From IMG/VR virus record IMGVR_UViG_3300045988_159436: DNA of 64,000 nucleotides. One strand, written 5' to 3'. The translations under genes were made by a program, and so were the position numbers. Shown here piece by piece: positions 36,863-63,300 of this stretch. The stretch is from a virus. Positions within the stretch are counted from its first letter, which is position 1, and the number at the start of each line of letters is the position of its first letter. The notes under the pieces are model-generated. The model searched no databases. It saw only the letters and a program-made list of their open reading frames with translations, and was not told the DNA's origin.

Positions 36863-39386
36863 TTGTTTCATCAAAGATTCTTTAAATTAACTATTGTCAA
36901 TAAAGAGAATGTTGATAGATTTTTTGAGGAATATGAACGAGCGAAACAAATTTTCTTTGACTTTGAAACTTCTGGATTAGATGTAAGATATAAGGGGAAA
37001 GATTATGCAGTAGGATTAACAGTAGCCTTTGAAGATAGTGTCAGTAAGGAAGTATACTATATTCCTTTCAGACACTATTTTGAAGGTAGCTATATTGGTT
37101 GTGGGAGACTCGATTACCGTAAAAACACTGCGGTTTTTGATGATGCTAAAAATTTTCCTGATTTTTTACCAGAAAAGTTTTCAGGAGAATATTATAATAT
37201 GGATATTGTTGATTTTATGGAACGATTGAAGCCTTTAATGGAAAATGGCGGGAAAGAGTATATAGCCCATCATATTTCATTTGACTTACATTTATTTGCA
37301 AATGAAGGTGTAGATATAGTAAAAGTGTTTGAAACAAATACTTTTACTGATACACAAATAGCTGTACATACTTTAGATGAAGAACAAGAGAAGAATTTAG
37401 AAGCAGTAACTGAAACAATTTTCTCTGTAAAAAAATCTCATTTTAAAGATACTATTATGACAGTTACTAAAGAGGAAAAGAAACTTTTGGGATTAGCTTC
37501 TAATAGTAATGCTAGTTTTCAACACGTTCAGATTCCAATAGGAGCACAATATTCAGCAGAAGATGTATATTTTATGAAAGAAATGTATGAGCCAATTCTT
37601 AATGCGTTAAGAGAAGATGGTGGTTACGAATATTTTAGAGAAGTACGAATGCCATATATGAAAGTTTTGTGGAAAATGGAACGTAATGGAATCAAAGTTG
37701 ACATAGAAAAACTTGAAGGTATGATAAAATTAGCAGAAGAAAAATTGGAAGAATTAACATACAAAATATATGAAGTAGTAGGAGCTAAATTTAATATTAA
37801 CAGTGGTCAACAGTTATTTGAGATATTATATGGTTTTAAAAAGAAATTAAAGGATAAGAAAACAGGGGAATATAAAGAGTCTTTTAATGAAGATTTAGTA
37901 GCATTAAATTTTGGTTTTAAGCCTATCGCATGGACAGAGGGCGGGAAATCAAGAGATATGGTATTAAGAACACCAAAAACAGATAAAGATGCGCTAAAGA
38001 AATTATTAAGACAAACTCCTAAAAGAGAAGATGGGCATAAATTAATTAAACTTCTACAAGATTATTTTAAATTAACAAAATTGTATACAGCATTTATGCT
38101 GGGTATAAAAGAAAAAATATATTGTGATGGAAAAGTACATCCAAGCTTCAACCAAAATGGTTGTCTTGTAGCAAACACTTTAATTCCTACAGATAGGGGA
38201 TTGTTCCGCATTCAGGATTTAGTAACAGATGCTTTAGTTGATGGTGAATTTGTTTCTAAAACCTATACGCTATTAAATCGAAATTTAGAACCTGAAAAGA
38301 CTTCCCATATAGTTAAATATGAGAATAGGAATACTATAAAAATTCGTACTGCTTTAGGGGTTACTATCGAAGGAACTGAAAATCACCCAATAATATGTAA
38401 TAAATATTCTTCAAAAGATTTATACCTTAATAGGAATAGTTGTCGTTTTAAAAATTTATATAAGAAAAAGGATGCTCAAATTTTCAAGCGTTTAGATGAG
38501 ATAAATACTGAAACTTATGTAGCAGTCCCTTATGGTTATAATTTTTTTGCTAAAGATTATCAGAAACTTGAATATGAATATGTTGCAATGCGTAGTGGAT
38601 TTAAGCAAGTTAAATTACCAGAAATTTTAGATGAAGATGTGGCAGAGTTTATGGGGATGTATTATGCAGATGGGTGTTTATCAGACACAAATGGTACTTT
38701 TACTATTTGCTTTACTAATGGAGATTCCTGTGTAATAAATCGTATACAAGAATTGTCTTTAAGACTTTTTGGAATAAAAGCACATGTTCGTGACTGTCAT
38801 CCTCATAGAAATTCTTTGGATATTAGAATTAGTGCTAAAAGACTTGCTAGTATTGAGAAAGCTTTTCAGCTTAAAAGAGGATGCACAAACAAAGTTATTC
38901 CTGATATTATTTTACAGTCCCCAAGAAGTGTTGTAATAGCTTTCATAAAAGGAATGACATTAGATAGTTATTTTGTAGAAGAATCTAATAAAAAACAGCT
39001 AAGATTTACTGTTTCAAATGAGCAAAGTCTTTTTCAACTTCAAACATTGCTATTGAATTTAGGTATTATTGGTGGGGCAAGACATCTCAATACTTATACT
39101 GGAAATGTTTATATGCTAACATTAACTAATGGAGAATATTTAAAGTTTAGAGATATCGTAGGATTTGTTCAAAAGAAAAAGTATAAAGATTTTGAGTATC
39201 AAAGAATTTCTGGTCAATATTTAGTAGATGAAGGTAATTCATTAATTTGGGTAAAGGTTAAAGAAATAGATAAAGGAAGGGCAGATGTTTATGACTTTAC
39301 TCTACCCGAAACACATAGTTTTATTTCAAATGGGTTTATTAGTCATAATACATCATCATTTAGGCTAAGTTGTTCTGACCCGAACT
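36863..39386 (+). CDS. polA: DNA polymerase I (family A) exon 1: 3'-5' exo plus N-terminal pol region, interrupted by intein
   Basis: Exo I FDFETSGLD; region ..SFNQNG[intein]TSSFRLSCSDPN aligns with Taq RFNQTATATGRLSSSDPN; the ORF stops right after DPN. Confidence 0.75.
38162..39349 (+). mobile_element. intein with LAGLIDADG homing endonuclease domain (in frame in polA)
   Basis: starts CLVANTLIPTDRG (block A), ends FISHN followed by Thr (+1); internal MGMYYADGCLSD and IAFIKGMTLDSYF LAGLIDADG-like motifs; 396 aa. Confidence 0.75.
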
Positions 39387-39652
39387 AAACAGATGGTTCG
39401 CTAGGCAAGAAATTCCTAGAAAAATTAACTGCTCTAACTCGGTGAAACTCCACCAATAAAAGGACAACACCGAACTAAGTTAGTTAGCGATAACTAAAAA
39501 GTGTAACGACTAGAGAAAGTAGGCTATATTAGTCGAAATCTCCACGAATGGGCAGAGCCTAAACCGAAAGGCATGGCTAAGATATAGTCTGAACTCCGTA
39601 CAATGGTAAAGACGGAGAAGCGGGGATAAAGAGCCCCGTGATAACATAATTG
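39387..39652 (+). ncRNA. group I intron 1 in polA (boundaries about +-5 nt)
   Basis: no ORF; S-element AAGAUAUAGUCU at 39579-39590; ends ..gataacataattG; the flanking exons restore ..SDPN|(F)QQLPKP.. Confidence 0.55.
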
Positions 39653-39987
39653 TTCAACAGCTTCCTAAGCCTTTAGAAGAGCCTAAAGATGGTGAAGATA
39701 GAAGTTACTATGATTTTTGGATACAATTTGAAATAAGAAGTTTAATGATAGCTGACAATGAAGACGAAGTAATTGTTGCGGCAGATTATCATGCTCTGGA
39801 AAAGTTTTTAACAGCGCATTTTTCAAAAGACCCATTGTTGATTAAAATGCTAAAAGAGAAACTTGACCCACATGGAACAGTAGCAACAATTATTTTTCCA
39901 GAATTAGCAGATGCAGACCCAAATTCAATTAAGAAGTTAGCACCACATAAAAGAAATGTGGCTAAGACTGTAGGTTTCGCTCAAATC
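39653..39987 (+). CDS. polA: DNA polymerase I exon 2 (motif A to motif B)
   Basis: VIVAADYHALEKFLTAHF (motif A DYSQIELR-like) ... KRNVAKTVGFAQ (motif B). Confidence 0.6.
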
Positions 39988-40185
39988 TAGGGTGAAGTAA
40001 AATCCCTCTCAAAACGGTGAAAGCCTAACAGGTTAATACCGTGCCGAACTCTGTGAAAACAGCGGTGTAGAGACTTATAATGTATCGGCTATGTTAAAAC
40101 ATAAATCAATCGAATACATTTAATGGGGGATAGGAGCAAGCTCCTAAAGGTATAGTCCGACACTCTTGGCAACAGGAGAAAACAG
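39988..40185 (+). ncRNA. group I intron 2 in polA (boundaries uncertain by about +-10 nt)
   Basis: R-like gtgtagagactta 40065-40077; S-element AAGGUAUAGUCCGAC 40147-40161 (compare Tetrahymena AAGAUAUAGUCGGAC); no ORF. Confidence 0.5.
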
Positions 40186-40549
40186 AATGGTAGATTATGG
40201 CGGTTCAAAAATAGCGGTAGCAAGAAATCTAGAGATAGATGAAAAGACCGCACAAGAATATATAGATAGATATTTTGAAGGTTTTGCAGGGTTAAGAAAA
40301 TACGATAGAGATTTAATTCAATTTGCTAGAAAGAATGGTTATATAGAAACATTATTTTCTGGGCATAAACGTCACTTGTGGGGGATAAATTCCCAAGATG
40401 GCAGAACACGTTCATATTATGAGCGGCTAGCAGTTAATTCAAAATCACAAGGGGCGGCGGCAGATTGCACAACATTAGCACAGATAGATGTGGATAATGA
40501 TGTAGTATTAAAATCTATTGGTGCAAGACAAATACTTAATGTACACGAT
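40186..40549 (+). CDS. polA: DNA polymerase I exon 3 (motif B tail to motif C)
   Basis: DYGGSKIAVARNLEIDEKTAQEYIDRYF aligns with YGMSAHRLSQELAIPYEEAQAFIERYF; ends ..ILNVHD. Confidence 0.6.
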
Positions 40550-40866
40550 AAACTTTAGTCAAATAACTTGTCGTGTTTAAACTCTTCGATATGCTGGAAC
40601 GCAAAAATACAGTATTACCAAAGAGTGACAATATACTGTATATCACGAAAGTGTGTAGCCAATCAGCAGGGAGGAAATGAGAGCATTTCACCCTCACAGA
40701 CTAACAAAAGCATAGAATAGTAGGAACTGCACATTACTACTATTTGAGAAGTGAGTAGAGTACGGCTTTGTTGAGATACAAAGTGGGTTGACATCCTTAA
40801 ATGGAAGCGGGGAGGCATAGTGCAGATGTATGATATAGTCGAGTGTGTTTTTAAGCATACGTTATG
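40550..40866 (+). ncRNA. group I intron 3 in polA
   Basis: Q AAUCAGCAGG exact at 40661-40670; R UCACAGACUAAC 40694-40705; S GAUAUAGUCG 40832-40841; 5' splice after U40549, omega-G 40866; the junction gives NVHD|EIVMVCPKK matching QVHDELVLEAPKE. Confidence 0.65.
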
Positions 40867-41022
40867 GAGATAGTCATGGTTTGTCCTAAAAAGTTTGCAG
40901 AATTATGCAAGCAGAGATTAACTTTTCATATGGAAAATTGTTTACCAAGCAGGGGTATAAATTTAACAATTCCATTAGAAGCCGTAGGAGATATAGGTAG
41001 AACTTATAGTGAAGCAAAATAA
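40867..41022 (+). CDS. polA: DNA polymerase I exon 4 (C-terminal 51 aa)
   Basis: EIVMVCPKKFAELCKQ...TIPLEAVGDIGRTYSEAK matches the Pol I C-terminus ..VPLEVEVGIGxxWxxAK. Confidence 0.6.
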   Translation, partial: EIVMVCPKKFAELCKQRLTFHMENCLPSRGINLTIPLEAVGDIGRTYSEAK

Positions 41023-44861: not shown

Positions 44862-45327
44862 CAAGATTGAAAATCAACTTTCACAAGAAGGTGTACCCCC
44901 TTTCTCCAATGAGAATATTGAAAGAGACTATTTAAAATTGCCAAGATATTTAGATGAGTTACCTGCCGCTGAAATAGGAAGGTATCTTCATGCTACAGTA
45001 CAGCAAAGGGTATATGTAAGAACGCTTATATCTCAAACAAGAGCGTATTTAAGGGAAGCACAGAGTCAGTTAAATATGGAAAAAGCTTTAATTTATAAAA
45101 GTTTTCCAGTAAAAATGAGTCTTACAGAAAAAGAATTAAAACTTGCAGAATATCCTTCCGCTAAAGAGGCAATGGAAAGGGTGATATATTTGCAAGAAAG
45201 ACTTGATTATTTAAAAGATGTATTAGATAGCTTAGAAGATTTAAAATTTAATATTAGTAGAGAGTTGTCTAGACGTGGAGTAGACTTTACAGATGCCAAC
45301 AGAAGTGCTAGGGTTGGTGTAGAGTGA
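44845..45327 (+). CDS. hypothetical protein
   Basis: ORF. Confidence 0.4.
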   Translation: MVTLIDKIENQLSQEGVPPFSNENIERDYLKLPRYLDELPAAEIGRYLHATVQQRVYVRTLISQTRAYLREAQSQLNMEKALIYKSFPVKMSLTEKELKLAEYPSAKEAMERVIYLQERLDYLKDVLDSLEDLKFNISRELSRRGVDFTDANRSARVGVE

Positions 45328-45854
45328 AGCAAGTAGATGTTCTTAAAGAACGGTTAGAACTTTTAAAAAGATATGAACCTGATTCGAAAGAAATAGTAGA
45401 GTTAGAAAATCGGATTAAATTAAGCAAAAAAGCTAAATCCAGTAGGAGAAAAGGGGCATCTTATGAATCAAAGGTAAGGAAGCTTTTGGGCGAAAGATTT
45501 CCTGATTTAGATTTTTCAAGAGTTCCTTCCAGTGGTGGATTTCAAAAATCCTCAGCCAATACTTTGTTAAGAGGGGACTTAGTTAATCTAAATGAAGATT
45601 ATGATTTCAAATTACATTTAGAACTAAAAAATCAAAATAGATGGCAAGTTAATACATGGTTTGAGCAAGCTGAAAGCGATTGTATTGAAGGTAAATTACC
45701 TATAGTTATTATGCATAGAACGCAGAAAAATGAAAATGGCAAGCGAATAGCAGAAGCAGATGATTTTGTATTTTTACGTTTAAAAGATTTTTTAGATATT
45801 TTAGATGATGGAAAAATAATCAAAAAATGTCTTGACAAAAAGACAAAAATGTGA
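45324..45854 (+). CDS. PD-(D/E)xK nuclease, Hjc-type resolvase-like
   Basis: KGASYESKVRKLLGERF (Hjc N-motif KGSxxERxLVxxLxxxGF) ... GDLV ... LELKNQ. Confidence 0.45.
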   Translation: MKQVDVLKERLELLKRYEPDSKEIVELENRIKLSKKAKSSRRKGASYESKVRKLLGERFPDLDFSRVPSSGGFQKSSANTLLRGDLVNLNEDYDFKLHLELKNQNRWQVNTWFEQAESDCIEGKLPIVIMHRTQKNENGKRIAEADDFVFLRLKDFLDILDDGKIIKKCLDKKTKM

Positions 45855-45860
45855 TATAAT
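45832..45860 (+). promoter_or_regulatory. consensus promoter
   Basis: TTGACA-17-TATAAT. Confidence 0.6.
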
Positions 45861-45921
45861 AACATTTGTAATAATTTTAAAAAAGCCTATAAAGGGCTAT
45901 AAAAGGAAAGAGGAAGATAGA

Positions 45922-46053
45922 ATGGAAAAAACAGCTTTATTTAAAGTTTCTTCAACAAGTAATGCAAAAAGTGTAGCAGGCTCAATCAGCCACACATTGA
46001 AAGGTGACGGAGATACAGCACCAAAAGATGTAGTATTGCAAGCAATCGGAGCT
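45922..46053 (+). CDS. SpoVS-like protein exon 1
   Basis: ATG after aaaggaaagaggaag; MEKTALFKVSSTSNAKSVAGSISHTL...VVLQAIGA resembles the SpoVS N-terminal half; the continuous ORF would stop at 46062. Confidence 0.5.
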
Positions 46054-46329
46054 AAAGGCTAATTGGCTCCCATCACAGTGATGTGATGAAAAATAGCGGG
46101 GAAGAAAACTGGAAAGCTGAGAAGCTAATCAGATTGGAAGGTTTAGTTTAAAAGCTAAACCACAAGCAGAGCATAGACAGTGAACCTCTTAGAGAATATA
46201 ATCTGTCCACGAGTCCCCGCCGCTTATAACGAGGTTATTCGAGCGTTATAAGATGAAAAGATATGCCGAACTAACAGGAAACGAACTGTTAGAAGTAGAG
46301 GATAAAAAGCCTTTACGATAACATAATTG
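46054..46329 (+). ncRNA. intron in SpoVS-like gene (probable group I; class unverified)
   Basis: no ORF; 3' end cgataacataattG is identical over 13 nt to the polA intron 1 3' end; Q-like aatcagattgg; the exon junction restores QAIGA|SAINQTCKAIAISRG. Confidence 0.45.
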
Positions 46330-46482
46330 AGTGCCATTAATCAAACATGTAAAGCTATTGCTATTTCAAGAGGGCATTTAGCTGTGGCAGGATACGATGT
46401 AGTTACTAGAATTGGATTTGACGTTGTTGAAATTGATGGTGAAGAACGTACAATTTTGAAATTCTTCGTATCATTGAGATAA
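46330..46482 (+). CDS. SpoVS-like protein exon 2
   Basis: SAINQTCKAIAISRGHLAVAGYDVVTRIGFDVVEIDGEERTILKFFVSLR matches the SpoVS C-terminal half. Confidence 0.5.
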   Translation, partial: SAINQTCKAIAISRGHLAVAGYDVVTRIGFDVVEIDGEERTILKFFVSLR

Positions 46483-46548: not shown

Positions 46549-46932
46549 ATGAACCAAGAACTCACATTAGCAGTTAGCAGTAGTTTTGAAGCCGCTCATC
46601 ATTTAGTAAATCCAACAGCATTTAATGAAAAATGCCTTAAACTACATGGACATTCTTATAAGTATACTATCTTTTTAAAAGGAGAAGTACAAGATGGTGG
46701 TATGGTAGAAGATTTTGGAGCTATAAAGAGATATATTATAAATGAAATAACAAAGCTCTATGACCATTCAGATTTAAACAGATTTTTTTATAATCCTACC
46801 GCAGAAATGTTAGTTTTAGATATGGCATGGAGAGTAGAAGCCTTAATAGAGGATAATAGTTTAAAAGTTAAACTGACCAAAATAGAATTAGCCGAAACGG
46901 ATAATAATAGGGTAATATGGGAGTCACAGTAA
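46549..46932 (+). CDS. queD: 6-carboxy-5,6,7,8-tetrahydropterin synthase
   Basis: CLKLHGHSY motif (CxxxHGH), about 125 aa. Confidence 0.7.
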   Translation: MNQELTLAVSSSFEAAHHLVNPTAFNEKCLKLHGHSYKYTIFLKGEVQDGGMVEDFGAIKRYIINEITKLYDHSDLNRFFYNPTAEMLVLDMAWRVEALIEDNSLKVKLTKIELAETDNNRVIWESQ

Positions 46933-47589
46933 ATGTATATTACAGAGATTTTTAGTAGTATTCAAGGTGAGGGGAAGTATACAGGCTATCCTACTACCTT
47001 TGTTAGATTATTTGGTTGCAATTTATTTGAGATGTCTCCTAGCTATGCTTGTAAGTATTGTGATGAGAAACATTCAATGACAGGCAAACGAATAAAGATG
47101 CATTTAGGATTGGTAATGGATAAGATAGGGGCATTAGGAAATAAATATGTTTGTATTACAGGTGGAGAACCTTTAATGCAGGAAGAAACTATGCCTTTAG
47201 TTTATGAATTATTGTATAATGATTATATTGTTACAGTAGAAACAAATGGGACAATTCCTATAGAGCATTGTGAATATGTAAGAAGTTATTCATATTGTAT
47301 GGATGTTAAATTACCTAGTAGCAGAACAGTATTAGCACCAGATTTAAATTGTTATAAGAATTTAGGAGAGCTAAAAGTAAATGATGAAGTTAAGTTTGTT
47401 ATTTCTAATATCCATGATTATGAAGAAGCAAAACGGATTTTAAAGAAATATAAAACTAAAGCAAGCCTTATTTTTTCTCCTGTGAATTGTGATTTAGAAT
47501 TAGCAAGAGAAATAATGGGTTGGTTAATGAAAGATAAACTAAAAGCTAAATTAGGATTACAAATACATAAATTATTAGAAATTAAATAG
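46933..47589 (+). CDS. queE: 7-carboxy-7-deazaguanine synthase (radical SAM)
   Basis: IFSSIQGEGKYTGYPTTFVRLFGCNL N-terminus typical of QueE. Confidence 0.65.
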   Translation: MYITEIFSSIQGEGKYTGYPTTFVRLFGCNLFEMSPSYACKYCDEKHSMTGKRIKMHLGLVMDKIGALGNKYVCITGGEPLMQEETMPLVYELLYNDYIVTVETNGTIPIEHCEYVRSYSYCMDVKLPSSRTVLAPDLNCYKNLGELKVNDEVKFVISNIHDYEEAKRILKKYKTKASLIFSPVNCDLELAREIMGWLMKDKLKAKLGLQIHKLLEIK

Positions 47590-47639: not shown

Positions 47640-47918
47640 ATGAAGATAGAAAATGTTAGAATATATGGTTTGCCAGAGAGCTTAATAGCCTCTGGCTATC
47701 CTATGTTATCTACAGAATTAAATGAAGAGGAATTTTTAAAGGAAGTAGAAGCGACAGAAAAAATAATTAAAAATAAATCTGGTAGTAATAAACATATAGA
47801 AAGAGGTATTAGATTAGGCAATTCTCCTTTAGGTAGCGGACATAATTGTGCTTTAAAGGGAATTACAGTACAATTTGATTTAACTTTGCCTCAGTATACA
47901 TGGCAACAGTTACAAAGA
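47640..47918 (+). CDS. thyX: Thy1/ThyX-like (flavin-dependent thymidylate synthase family) exon 1 (3' boundary approximate)
   Basis: GNSPLGSGH..ITVQFDLTLPQYTWQQLQR aligns with ThyX HETPFEH..FTFHVKAPIFVARQWFR; the continuous ORF stops at 47972. Confidence 0.4.
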
Positions 47919-49206
47919 TATCACTATATTGATTTTATAAGCTCAATGGGCGTTTTAGGCAGTAATGCCTAAAATTATCAGACGGAGAACCTGTAAATGC
48001 AGGGTGTCAGAAATGGCTAACGGTTCAGAACTAGAGATAGTTTATGAGTAAGGGAAGCTAAACCTTTCGAGGCAAGCTAATACCGTGCTGTATAAATTTG
48101 AAAAGGAAATTATTATGGAAAAAATTGAAGATATGATTATTTTAGAGTATTTACCACTTCAAAAAGTAAGAGTGAGATGCTCTATTTGTGGAAAAGAAAG
48201 AATAGTATCTTTAAGAAATTTAAGGAGAAAAGGCAATAGACATACTATAAATACTTGTAAAGAATCTTTTGTTAATTTACTAATAGGAAAAGAGCTAGGC
48301 GATTATGTTGTTTCTGGTTCTGCTCCTAAAAATAAAATAGAATTAAGCTGTAAGATATGTGGGCATAAAACGTCTTGTTATGAAAGTGGGCTAACCCCAA
48401 GATTCCATAATGGTAGCACTTGTAAAGAAGATTTTGCTAAAAGTTTTCTAGGAAAATCTACAGATGCTTTTAAGATAGTTGATTATTTTAAAAAGGGACA
48501 ACAGTATCAATTAGTGTTAGAATGTTTATCCTGTGCAACACGAAGGAATATACCTATTAATAAAATAGATACATATTCTTTTTCTCATAAAGATTGTTTT
48601 TATTTTCTTCCTAATGATAACATAAAGAAAACTATAAGTTATCGTTGGGAGGGGATAAATCAACGTGTTTTTAATCCTAACAATAATAACTATACGTATT
48701 ATGGAGCAAGAGGTGTGCAGAATAAATTCAAAGATAAAGTTGATTTCTATTATCATTTTTATCCCGAATTATCTAAAAATTCTTCTCTAACTATAGATAG
48801 AATAGATGTTAATGGGGATTATAGCAAAGAAAATACAAGACTAATTACAATAAAAGAACAGCAGTCTAATAAAAGAGAAACTCATTATTTTATAGCACAA
48901 GCTGGTGATAAATGCTATGTTTCTAATAACACTATGGAATTTGGAAAAAGATTTGGCATAAATGGTAGAAGCATAGGAAATTGTTTGAGAGGACAATCTA
49001 AAACTGCTGGTGGCTTTAAATTCAAAGAAATTACAAAAGAGCAATTTGAGAATTTATGTAGTGTAACGACTAAAGGGATAATTGTTATCCAAGAGGTTGT
49101 AGGTGAAATTCCTACGCTGTAGCACCGTCCCCCTGAAAAGGGTGAAGAGATAGTCTATTCCCTTCAAATACGCCGAAAGGCGGGGTATAAAGCAATGTCA
49201 AAAATG
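47919..49206 (+). mobile_element. group I intron with HNH homing endonuclease ORF (boundaries approximate)
   Basis: R-like GUUCAGAACUAGAG 48023-48036, S-like GAGAUAGUCUAUUCC about 49147-49160, omega-G 49206; shares uaauaccgugc with polA intron 2; the junction ..LQR|HRIT.. recreates the ThyX RHR motif. Confidence 0.45.
48115..49122 (+). CDS. HNH homing endonuclease (intron-encoded)
   Basis: YRWEGINQRVFNPNNNNYTYYGARGV...IDRIDVNGDYSKENTRLIT matches the phage HNH_3 pattern (W..M..RC.NP....Y..YGGRGI / DRIDNNGNYEPGNCRW); ATG after aaggaaa. Confidence 0.6.
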   Translation: MEKIEDMIILEYLPLQKVRVRCSICGKERIVSLRNLRRKGNRHTINTCKESFVNLLIGKELGDYVVSGSAPKNKIELSCKICGHKTSCYESGLTPRFHNGSTCKEDFAKSFLGKSTDAFKIVDYFKKGQQYQLVLECLSCATRRNIPINKIDTYSFSHKDCFYFLPNDNIKKTISYRWEGINQRVFNPNNNNYTYYGARGVQNKFKDKVDFYYHFYPELSKNSSLTIDRIDVNGDYSKENTRLITIKEQQSNKRETHYFIAQAGDKCYVSNNTMEFGKRFGINGRSIGNCLRGQSKTAGGFKFKEITKEQFENLCSVTTKGIIVIQEVVGEIPTL

Positions 49207-49500
49207 CATCGTATTACAATGCTTGATTTAGATAAACATTGTCCTTTAGTGGATAATGAATTATTAAAAATTTCACAAAGATATGTAAATGCTTATAAAA
49301 AAGGTGAGATTGGCATAGATGCTTGTTTATCTAATATTCCTATGGGATTACAGATGACAGCACGAATGACTACAAACTATTTACAACTATTATCTATTTA
49401 TCATCAGAGAAATACCCATCGTTCAGATGAATGGAAAGAATTTTGTTCTTGGGTAAAAACACTGCCTATGTTTAAAGAGTTGTGTTTAAAAGGAGAATAA
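49207..49500 (+). CDS. thyX: Thy1/ThyX-like exon 2
   Basis: HRIT..NELLKISQRY (RHR..S..RY motif region) and ACLSNIPMGLQMTARMTTNYLQLL...DEWK resemble the ThyX C-terminal half. Confidence 0.4.
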   Translation, partial: HRITMLDLDKHCPLVDNELLKISQRYVNAYKKGEIGIDACLSNIPMGLQMTARMTTNYLQLLSIYHQRNTHRSDEWKEFCSWVKTLPMFKELCLKGE

Positions 49501-62554: not shown

Positions 62555-62857
62555 ATGGAAACGAGAAATTATATAAGCGAAGAGCTTTTTCAAAAAATGA
62601 AAGAAGCTTTAACTAAAAATGATGATACATTTTGTGATTTTTCCAGTGATGTAACTGTTATGTTAACTGTTCCAAAAACTTTAAGTAAATTTACAGTTTC
62701 CAAGAAAGTATTTCGTATTCGTATTAAAGATAATTGGTTTAGTGTAGATGCAAAAAGATTAAAAAGTCTCTCCTATGCGATACTAAATAAAAGATTAAAT
62801 AGAACAATATTAGCGGCAGAAGATGCTCCTGATGAAATCATTGCTTTTTGCGAATGA
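62555..62857 (+). CDS. hypothetical protein
   Basis: RBS aaggaggg. Confidence 0.4.
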   Translation: METRNYISEELFQKMKEALTKNDDTFCDFSSDVTVMLTVPKTLSKFTVSKKVFRIRIKDNWFSVDAKRLKSLSYAILNKRLNRTILAAEDAPDEIIAFCE

Positions 62858-63300
62858 AAACATTTAGAGGAATAATGGAAGTATCGTCACAAGTGTGCAT
62901 AGGGGATATTTTTAATCCAAATCTTGTATTTGATACTTCCAAAGGTATTTATAAATGTTATGTAGAAGAAGAAAATGCTGAAATTATAGCAATATATCTA
63001 ATAAAAGAAGGATATAAAAATCCTGAAATAACAAATAACTATTCTATCATTCTTAGTCCTTCAACTTTTATTGGATTTTTTAACAACGACTACAGTACAA
63101 AAAAAGCACAAAATATTAAAGAAGCAAGTCAATATGAATTACCTAAAGAATATGTAATAGAAAACGCATTAAAAAATTCAATTATAAATTTGCCTATTGT
63201 AACTTTAAAATATTTTGTAGCCTGTTTAAAAACAAAAAATTATGTATTATATAGAGGCAAGCATGGATTTAAAATAGCGAAATTGGAGGAGTGCTTATGA
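62848..63300 (+). CDS. hypothetical protein
   Basis: ORF. Confidence 0.35.
   Translation: MRMKTFRGIMEVSSQVCIGDIFNPNLVFDTSKGIYKCYVEEENAEIIAIYLIKEGYKNPEITNNYSIILSPSTFIGFFNNDYSTKKAQNIKEASQYELPKEYVIENALKNSIINLPIVTLKYFVACLKTKNYVLYRGKHGFKIAKLEECL

Follow-up and report, generated by a model that had tools for sequence, protein, structure and literature searches.

Group I introns that carry HNH genes are a classic feature of phages, and a crystal structure has reportedly been determined for the second intron (I2) of orf142 of phage Twort. Three introns (I1–I3) are described in this gene of the Staphylococcus phage (PMC22036). The passage of PMC11878797 that cites Foley et al. 2000 describes a group I intron in the lysin gene of S. 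thermophilus phages together with three deletion derivatives. In a survey of the Bastillevirinae, the host genes were only those for DNA polymerase, terminase large subunit, thymidylate synthase and ribonucleotide reductase, and the same paper points out that phage introns may escape the Rfam and GISSD models (PMC11878797). Intron-mediated competition has been described for PhiPA3 (PMC11620839). Here, a stretch of viral DNA of 64,000 nucleotides (nt), IMG/VR record IMGVR_UViG_3300045988_159436, was analysed; this whole stretch is called the window below. In the window, a spoVS-like gene is split into two open reading frames (ORFs) by 276 nt, and these 276 nt (46054–46329), located between codons 44 and 45, are very probably an IA2-like group I intron capable of self-splicing.

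The spoVS gene of B. subtilis has a stage V sporulation phenotype. SpoVS is predicted to have an Alba fold and to bind nucleic acids, and homologues are also present in non-sporulating lineages (PMC2732212). Moreover, spoVS is listed among viral auxiliary genes (PMC6172770). By analogy, the SpoVS-like protein of the window is probably also a nucleic-acid-binding protein with an Alba fold. An earlier reading of the same DNA (the original prediction) had called a sporulation-type regulator interrupted by an intron in a phage unusual. Phage homologues of SpoVS are not rare; it is an intron inside one of them that seems to be unreported, and a full-text literature search returned no relevant paper combining SpoVS, phage and intron.

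Results

Two halves of a spoVS-like gene join in frame

The frame of exon 1 starts at an ATG preceded by the ribosome-binding site GGAAAGAGGA, encodes MEKTALFKVSSTSNAKSVAGSISHTLKGDGDTAPKDVVLQAIGA up to T46053 and continues past this base as AAA GGC TAA, which places the stop at 46060–46062. The frame of exon 2 encodes SAINQTCKAIAISRG...FFVSLR from 46330. No credible start was found for exon 2, where the only candidate is a TTG at 46327 without a Shine-Dalgarno sequence. The original prediction had taken the ORF 45922–46062 and this startless downstream frame for the N-terminal and C-terminal halves of SpoVS. Its coordinates were confirmed, and the two exon halves separately match the corresponding halves of the Pfam SpoVS profile (PF04232).

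When T46053 is joined to A46330, an in-frame QAIGA/SAINQ junction (the slash marks the joint) and a protein of 94 amino acids (aa) are obtained, one residue fewer than the 95 aa counted before. The joined product matches positions 3–82 of the 83 positions of PF04232 (E = 5.4e-22, 77.8 bits, cutoff 24), as proposed. It also aligns without gaps across the junction to the SpoVS-related protein of solved structure PDB 2EH1 (E = 2e-14) and to the products of uninterrupted SpoVS genes from 11 phage records, including Bacillus phage BCD7 and Lysinibacillus, Stenotrophomonas and Streptomyces phages. In the 2EH1 alignment, the insertion point falls in the most conserved SpoVS motif, QAIGA/xAxNQ. Placement in a conserved motif is usual for targets of homing endonucleases.

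A scan of IMG/VR with the joined protein gave 16 loci (loci are given with L numbers below). In two of them, L002 and L003, the gene is uninterrupted and reads exactly GGAGCT/AGTGCC, and this is the strongest of the checks on the join. The full-length profile match, the 2EH1 alignment and these empty-site alleles all agree with the seamless in-frame join after U46053 and G46329 that had been predicted. Since the intron and exon 2 both start with A, the DNA comparison alone leaves an ambiguity of 1 nt in the boundaries. The boundaries 46054 and 46329 were chosen because they follow the group I rules that a U precedes the 5' splice site and that a G is the last base of the intron.

Fold and covariation of the intervening sequence

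Between these boundaries, the RNA has the helices of a group I intron (Table 1). The unconstrained minimum free energy fold recovers P2, P3, P4, P5, P6, P8, P9 and P9.1, with an energy of −76.2 kcal/mol versus a shuffle mean of −52.0 (z = −5.2). The G+C content of the intron is 0.40, which is higher than that of the flanks (0.25–0.35). The in-frame stop that ends the exon 1 frame sits in loop L1. A P10 helix is possible between the guide AUU (46062–46064) and the 3' exon AGU (46330–46332), and the corresponding guide GUU and 3' exon AGC of L016 represent a compensatory change. The P4/P5 region, with GAGA as L5 and AA junctions on both sides, corresponds to the classical P and Q elements and carries a U-A to G-C change in L016. 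P7 forms a pseudoknot with P3. Beside the bulged A46170, the pair G46171–C46266, which is G-C in 50 of 51 sequences, is by analogy the putative guanosine-binding pair. P7.1 is an IA-type extension between P7 and P3' and forms one composite hairpin, not two separate ones. The end of the tail, ...UUG, is kept in the window intron, in L016, in L001 and in the first intron of the DNA polymerase gene of the window (polA intron 1).

Covariation was examined with a purpose-built covariance model, R1, which was made from the window intron, the MT835481 intron and the L016 intron stripped of its ORF, with P7 unpaired and polA not included. A pattern of the P4–P5 block fetched 77 IMG/VR loci, and R1 gave 88 matches, of which 65 are distinct. 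For a second model, R2, only the 5' cores (P1 to P8) were taken, from 34 diverse members of the family. Covariation was scored on the 65 distinct relatives with P7 added back as a pseudoknot. Standard pairs occupied 92.8% of the cells, as compared with 66.5% in column shuffles and 32–43% when the partners were slid by 1–3 columns, and 70 of the 72 pairs showed changes on both sides. P7, which was absent from the aligning model, was paired in 99.6% of the cells, and four of its five pairs covary. P3, P4, P6, P7 and P7.1 were paired in 97–99.7% of the cells. In the closest divergent homologue, L016, compensatory changes were observed in P2, P4, P6, P7, P7.1, P8, P9, P9.1 and P10. Letters are present in the splice-site column for 52 aligned relatives; 30 of them read U•G, and several of the others appear misaligned.

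The P7.1 extension and the R2 matches to the Twort orf142 introns place the family, as judged by sequence, probably among the IA2-like phage introns. The intron class, which had been left uncertain in the original prediction, can be given as group I, probably IA2-like, with recognisable R and S elements and with covariation from P3 to P9.1.

Several points weigh against this reading. The alignment was fitted to R1 for all helices but P7, which inflates the pairing counts. The closing pair of P5 and the outer pairs of P8 are poorly conserved in the family, with 78% of the cells paired. The R2 matches to the Twort introns (30.0, 26.2 and 19.5 bits; E = 5e-5 to 0.017) are modest links of about 20–30 bits with rough E-values from a shortened calibration. 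The Rfam group I model RF00028 gave no match to the SpoVS intron at the gathering score in the whole window, none at E ≤ 10 in slices of 501 nt and 301 nt, and none at E ≤ 1 in six relatives (GenBank loci L001 and L030–L034). The proposed covariance-model check of 46054–46329 against group I and group II therefore met silence from the standard Rfam models and needed a purpose-built one, and because of this silence the class assignment rests on manual anatomy, covariation and purpose-built models. Splicing itself is predicted from the sequence. With regard to the host, no relative was found in the genome collection, and no close relative of the window in the phage collection. That RF00028 misses the intron says something about this database model and does not bear on what defines the group I class.

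Table 1. Positions of the gene, intron and helix features in the window
Feature	Position	Strand	Details
Candidate sigma-70-type promoter of spoVS-like gene	45832–45860	+	TTGACA-17-TATAAT, extended −10 TG; 12/12 consensus
Ribosome-binding site (GGAAAGAGGAAG)	45905–45916	+	5' of ATG 45922; from the sequence itself
Exon 1, spoVS-like gene	45922–46053	+	132 nt, 44 codons, ATG at 45922, ends ...QAIGA; contiguous with exon 2 in intronless L002 and L003
Predicted group I intron (IA2-like)	46054–46329	+	276 nt, phase 0, ORF-less; last base G46329 = terminal G (omega-G)
P1	46048–46070	+	Exon GGAGCU + intron AA (46048–46055) with UUGGCUCC (46063–46070); U46053•G46065 = 5' splice site
P2 hairpin	46071–46088	+	7 bp, GUGA (GNRA) tetraloop; 96.3% of cells paired, 7/7 pairs covary
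P3 5' strand GCGGGG	46096–46101	+	With 46215–46220; 97.4% of cells paired, 6/6 covary
P4 + P5	46109–46132	+	P4 46109–46112/46129–46132 (CUGG/UCAG) encloses P5 46115–46118/46123–46126; P4 99.1% of cells paired
P6 hairpin	46140–46161	+	7 bp; 98.3% of cells paired, 7/7 covary
P7 5' strand G(A)GCAU, R element CAGAGCAUAG	46169–46174	+	Bulged A46170; with AUGCC 46263–46267 in S element AAGAUAUGCC
P7.1	46176–46207	+	46176–46180/46203–46207, inner 3-bp stem 46186–46188/46192–46194; 99.7% and 98.1% of cells paired
P3 3' strand CCCCGC	46215–46220	+	Partner of 46096–46101
P8	46223–46252	+	46223–46231/46244–46252; loop L8 46232–46243
J8/7 + P7 3' strand (AUGAAAAGAUAUGCC)	46253–46267	+	Pair list, R1 alignment, covariation
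P9 hairpin	46271–46292	+	7 bp; 98.7% of cells paired
P9.1 hairpin	46295–46316	+	7 bp, conserved loop AUAAAAAG; 98.7% of cells paired
3' tail CGAUAACAUAAUUG	46317–46329	+	Ends in terminal G; 13 nt identical to the end of polA intron 1
Exon 2, spoVS-like gene	46330–46482	+	50 codons (SAINQ...FFVSLR), stop TAA 46480–46482
Intrinsic terminator	46507–46527/46537	+	8-bp stem, 6 G-C pairs, then T-run
polA intron 1	39387–39652	+	Group I, P1–P9.1 layout, 3' module common with the SpoVS intron

Alleles of the intron and the lost endonuclease

The insert varies in length among the loci of the IMG/VR scan. The 276-nt insert is identical in L007 and L014 and has one substitution in L004, a 419-nt version is present in L005, L009, L011, L012 and L013, and an 887-nt version in L006, L008, L010 and L015. 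A more distant homologue, L016 (86% protein identity in exon 2), is interrupted at the same site by an 893-nt version that has diverged. Over 700 nt to either side, the flanks of L002–L015, L016 being left aside, are about 98–99% identical to those of the window, and no insertions or deletions separate them. Such near-identical flanks indicate a presence/absence and length polymorphism (0, 276, 419 and 887 nt) within one phage species.

In the 887-nt form, the P8 loop encloses an ORF of 207 aa that matches HNH_3 (E = 7e-12) and, weakly, helix-turn-helix profiles. Taking 611 nt out of this form gives the 276-nt form, with an identical prefix of 185 nt and an identical suffix of 92 nt. The deletion begins exactly at the ATG of the ORF (after window position 46238) and ends 14 nt before its stop. 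In the scar left in L8, a Shine-Dalgarno-like GAGG (G46231, which closes P8, plus AGG at 46232–46234) and the last codons of the ORF, CGA GCG TTA TAA, are kept. In the 419-nt form, an in-frame deletion of 468 nt lies between AAAAGAA repeats. No endonuclease ORF was found in the window intron, only the deletion scar in L8, and tblastn with the HNH protein of the relatives found no HNH paralogue in the 64-kb window. These results indicate that the window intron is a late-stage derivative of a mobile HNH intron, in which the ribozyme is intact and the endonuclease gene is gone; the activity and the target of the endonuclease are predicted from the sequence.

An intron that has already lost its endonuclease ORF stands at a late stage of the homing cycle, and the intronless alleles show that the gene manages without it. 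On these grounds the intron might be decaying, with splicing lost or negligible and the spoVS-like gene a pseudogene giving a 46-aa N-terminal fragment. However, the window copy and the ORF-bearing alleles have ribozyme cores with 100% identity over the 185 + 92 nt, every helix is intact, the exons are undamaged and encode the same protein sequence as the intronless allele, and the promoter, ribosome-binding site and terminator are kept. The strain-level substitutions in helices also keep the pairing: all three of them, a C-G to U•G change in P2, a G-C to G•U change in P6 and a U-A to U•G change in P9.1, are pairing-preserving, and one further substitution is located in J3/4. Loss of splicing by decay is thus very unlikely, and a functional group I intron is preferred.

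Related introns in other phages

By blastn, the core of the SpoVS intron is similar to a sequence inserted in the terminase gene of a gut phage (MT835481.1) and to a gap, left without annotation, between the split gyrase genes of Yersinia phage phiR1-37. The last ~75 nt have 80–86% identity to sequences inside split terminase, tape-measure and polymerase genes, and matches to the 3' end come from Staphylococcus, Streptococcus, Clostridioides, Alicyclobacillus and Arcanobacterium phages. The nearest kin of the SpoVS intron sit in other phages and are much closer to it than polA intron 1 of the same window. In total, at least 65 distinct family introns were found (L035–L099 from IMG/VR; L001 and L030–L034 from GenBank). 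Members interrupt many genes at in-frame positions, and many copies are located at several sites in terminase large subunit-like genes. Some contigs have two copies in one gene (L001, 1456–1720 and 2477–2662; L058; L069). No intron annotation of these copies was present in the five GenBank records inspected. The host genes are named here by the annotation of the records, as Pfam searches with junction fragments of 160 aa gave an identity for no gene but that of the phiCD211 tail protein.

In phiCD211 (L033; 1287–1580 and 1604–1869), the R1 match lies directly 5' of a stretch annotated as Intron_gpI, between two tail/tape-measure coding sequences. This could be two tandem introns with a very short exon between them, or one mis-delimited intron. 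Matches to the 3' module only (model positions ~206–268, 48–56 bits) were observed in several loci, among them L075 (6247–6310), L061 (172–234), L092 (4305–4367) and L045 (629–691). They lie about 1 kb from intron 5' halves, which fits ORF-bearing introns. The 3' module may have been exchanged between different intron cores.

The interruption of many other genes in frame also bears on the proposal that the insert is no intron at all, but a small mobile element or what is left of a free-standing HNH cassette, with the two ORFs expressed separately or not at all. The silence of the Rfam intron models agrees with such a proposal, and TTG 46327 is formally a start for the second half. This TTG lacks a Shine-Dalgarno sequence, though, and the group I fold of the insert is complete and covaries, its splice-site nucleotides are the correct ones and its 5' core matches the Twort group I introns, so that a non-intron insert is hardly credible. 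A group II intron, an intein or translational bypass, for which nothing speaks beyond the gene interruption itself, has practically no chance of being right: a group II intron would need much more than 276 nt and no Rfam group II model matches, an intein is contradicted by the stop codon two codons into the insert, and the structure and boundaries fit a group I intron rather than any of the three.

Relation to polA intron 1 and other interrupted genes

The original prediction had pointed to a 13-nt identity between the 3' ends of the SpoVS intron and polA intron 1 and had taken it for a sign of shared lineage. The identity was confirmed (46317–46329 and 39640–39652). Taken alone, a 12-mer match with up to one mismatch is no more than chance would give, since 49 of 100 shuffles did as well, and it is the structural context that makes the identity meaningful. 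R1 matched polA intron 1 over its full length (39381–39652; 38.3 bits, E = 5e-10). The P9.1 loop of polA intron 1, AUAAAGAG, is the same loop as AUAAAAAG of the SpoVS intron, and the stems of this hairpin, GCGGGG/CCCCGU in polA intron 1 versus GUAGAGG/CCUUUAC in the SpoVS intron, differ completely and are compensated. R2, from which the 3' module had been removed, gave 30.9 bits (E = 3e-5) for polA intron 1, no better than the 30.0 and 26.2 bits for Twort introns. This parity indicates that a specific kinship with polA intron 1 is confined to the 3' module, namely the P9.1 loop AUAAARAG and the tail GAUAACAUAAUUG. By sequence, therefore, the two introns appear to be of the same broad class with a shared 3' module and not close overall; the proposed shared lineage holds for the 3' module, whereas the 5' core is no closer to polA intron 1 than to Twort. 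With RF00028, polA intron 1 gave 40.5 bits (E = 2e-8), which is short of the gathering score (50). No match at E ≤ 10 was found with R1 in polA introns 2 and 3 or in an ORF-bearing insertion at ~47973–49194, and none with R2 either.

Other parts of the window were noted during these searches. A blastn match of 66% at 62957–63033 and a weak R1 match at 62975–63026 lie inside the ORF 62848–63300 and were judged to be chance. Sub-threshold RF00028 matches were observed at 39954–40179 (38.4 bits) and 40500–40862 (21.7 bits), between the polA fragments 39745–39990, 40166–40558 and 40864–41022. The DNA polymerase gene appears to have three group I introns, with introns 2 and 3, which neither R1 nor R2 matched, from other intron families. 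By eye, an intein-like insert was also seen in the polA ORF 36863–39388 (~38100–39350). It starts ...NQNG/CLVANT..., ends ...FISHN/TSS before the polymerase motif RLSCSDPN, and contains the LAGLIDADG-like blocks MGMYYADGCLSD and FIKGMTLDSYF. At 47640–49500, the ORFs 47640–47972 and 49195–49500 flank a 345-aa ORF (48085–49122) with a weak match of the I-HmuI NUMOD-like type (E = 0.0035). Here a further gene seems to be interrupted by an insertion that bears an endonuclease; the two flanking fragments were not identified by Pfam.

Expression signals and neighbouring genes

The spoVS-like gene has a promoter sequence, a ribosome-binding site and a terminator of its own (Table 1), and promoter function at 45832–45860 is predicted by the consensus match. 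A second promoter-like sequence, TAGACA-17-TATAAT (46174–46202; 11/12), lies inside the intron and was taken to be probably coincidental, since its −35 part is the covarying 5' strand of P7.1 and its −10 part belongs to the family-wide core motif GAAUAUAAU. The −35 part reads TAGGCA in L016 and TAGGAA in L001. In the ORF-bearing alleles the site is located just 5' of the endonuclease ORF and could serve that ORF.

Directly 3' of the spoVS-like gene (46549–47589), a QueD-like gene (PTPS, E = 7e-21) and a radical-SAM gene, QueE-like by appearance, were found; these neighbours suggest 7-deazaguanine modification of the phage DNA. The 5' neighbour (45324–45854) encodes a phage PDDEXK endonuclease (PF24608, E = 7e-20).

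Discussion

If the 276 nt are a group I intron, expression of the gene may proceed as follows. Transcription of the spoVS-like gene would run between the consensus promoter and the terminator of its own. P1 would then form in the RNA, where UUGGCUCC would act as the guide that pairs with GGAGCU and the first two intron bases, so that cleavage falls at U46053•G46065. P7 would take up an external guanosine (at G46171–C46266, beside A46170), which would attack 3' of U46053. G46329 would then occupy the G site, while the guide AUU holds the 3' exon AGU as P10, and ligation of the exons would give the mRNA for the 94-aa SpoVS/Alba-fold protein. The in-frame TAA two codons into the intron would halt ribosomes before they reach the ribozyme core. 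The ancestor of the intron probably carried the 207-aa HNH gene in the P8 loop, and the window copy would have lost it in a single 611-nt deletion. The ORF-less intron could now spread only by recombination or by an endonuclease supplied from a co-infecting relative.

When the observations on the family are read together, a wider picture can be drawn, which is speculative and, as a whole, unlikely. The SpoVS intron would belong to a large uncatalogued IA-type sub-lineage of phage introns, invisible to RF00028 and marked by an invariant P4–P5 block, the composite P7.1 hairpin and an exchanged 3' domain with the loop AUAAAAAG and the tail GAUAACA. The ORF-less copy in the spoVS-like gene would be kept for gating the expression of a nucleoid-type protein, or for protecting the site against the endonuclease of co-infecting sisters, an intron-mediated competition like that of PhiPA3.

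The locus matters mainly for annotation and for the natural history of such introns. Gene callers give two orphan peptides (46 and 51 aa) in place of one SpoVS-like protein, and an Rfam scan remains silent; the same annotation gap concerns its relatives, which number in the dozens and interrupt terminase, tape-measure, gyrase and polymerase genes of phages from the gut and elsewhere. The gene of a small Alba-fold, sporulation-type regulator is added to the targets of phage group I introns. One phage species provides a natural series of the empty site, the intact HNH gene, the in-frame-deleted HNH gene and the cleanly excised HNH gene, which suits the study of the cycle of gain, decay and loss. 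The understanding of how group I introns function is unchanged, and the mechanism proposed here is unsurprising.

Comparison with known systems

Among the described systems, the lysin intron of S. thermophilus phages is, as far as the citing paper describes it, alike in having intronless, full-length and internally deleted versions at one site. It differs in the gene and in the intron family: the DT1 intron gave only a weak match with R2 (15.6 bits, E = 0.14) and none with R1 at E ≤ 1. The HNH introns of Bacillus phages (SPO1 I-HmuI type) have IA-type ribozymes with loop-encoded HNH genes, and ORF-less and ORF-bearing forms coexist there as well. In contrast to the SpoVS intron, the genes reported to carry them do not include spoVS; the window copy has no ORF, and the Bacillus introns have a NUMOD architecture whereas the ORF of the SpoVS intron's relatives combines HNH_3 with a weak helix-turn-helix.

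The Twort orf142 IA2 introns (I1–I3; Landthaler & Shub 1999) are likewise short phage group I introns in a protein-coding gene, with the IA-type extension between P7 and P3'. However, R1 did not match them at E ≤ 1, the 3' module of the SpoVS family (P9, P9.1 with the loop AUAAAAAG, and the tail GAUAACA) is absent from them, and the host gene is another one. Within the window, polA intron 1 shares with the SpoVS intron the helix order P1–P9.1, the P9.1 loop AUAAARAG and the 13-nt 3' end, and neither contains an ORF. Their blastn similarity is limited to the last ~39 nt, and polA intron 1 has a sub-threshold RF00028 match while the SpoVS intron has none. The closest relatives are the introns of the MT835481.1 terminase, the phiR1-37 gyrase A, the tape-measure gene of Clostridium phage phiCD211 and the DNA polymerase gene of Alicyclobacillus phage MMB025, which R1 matched with 88–245 bits. 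They differ from the SpoVS intron in host gene and insertion site, and have the P4–P6 block, the P7.1 region and the 3' module in common with it.

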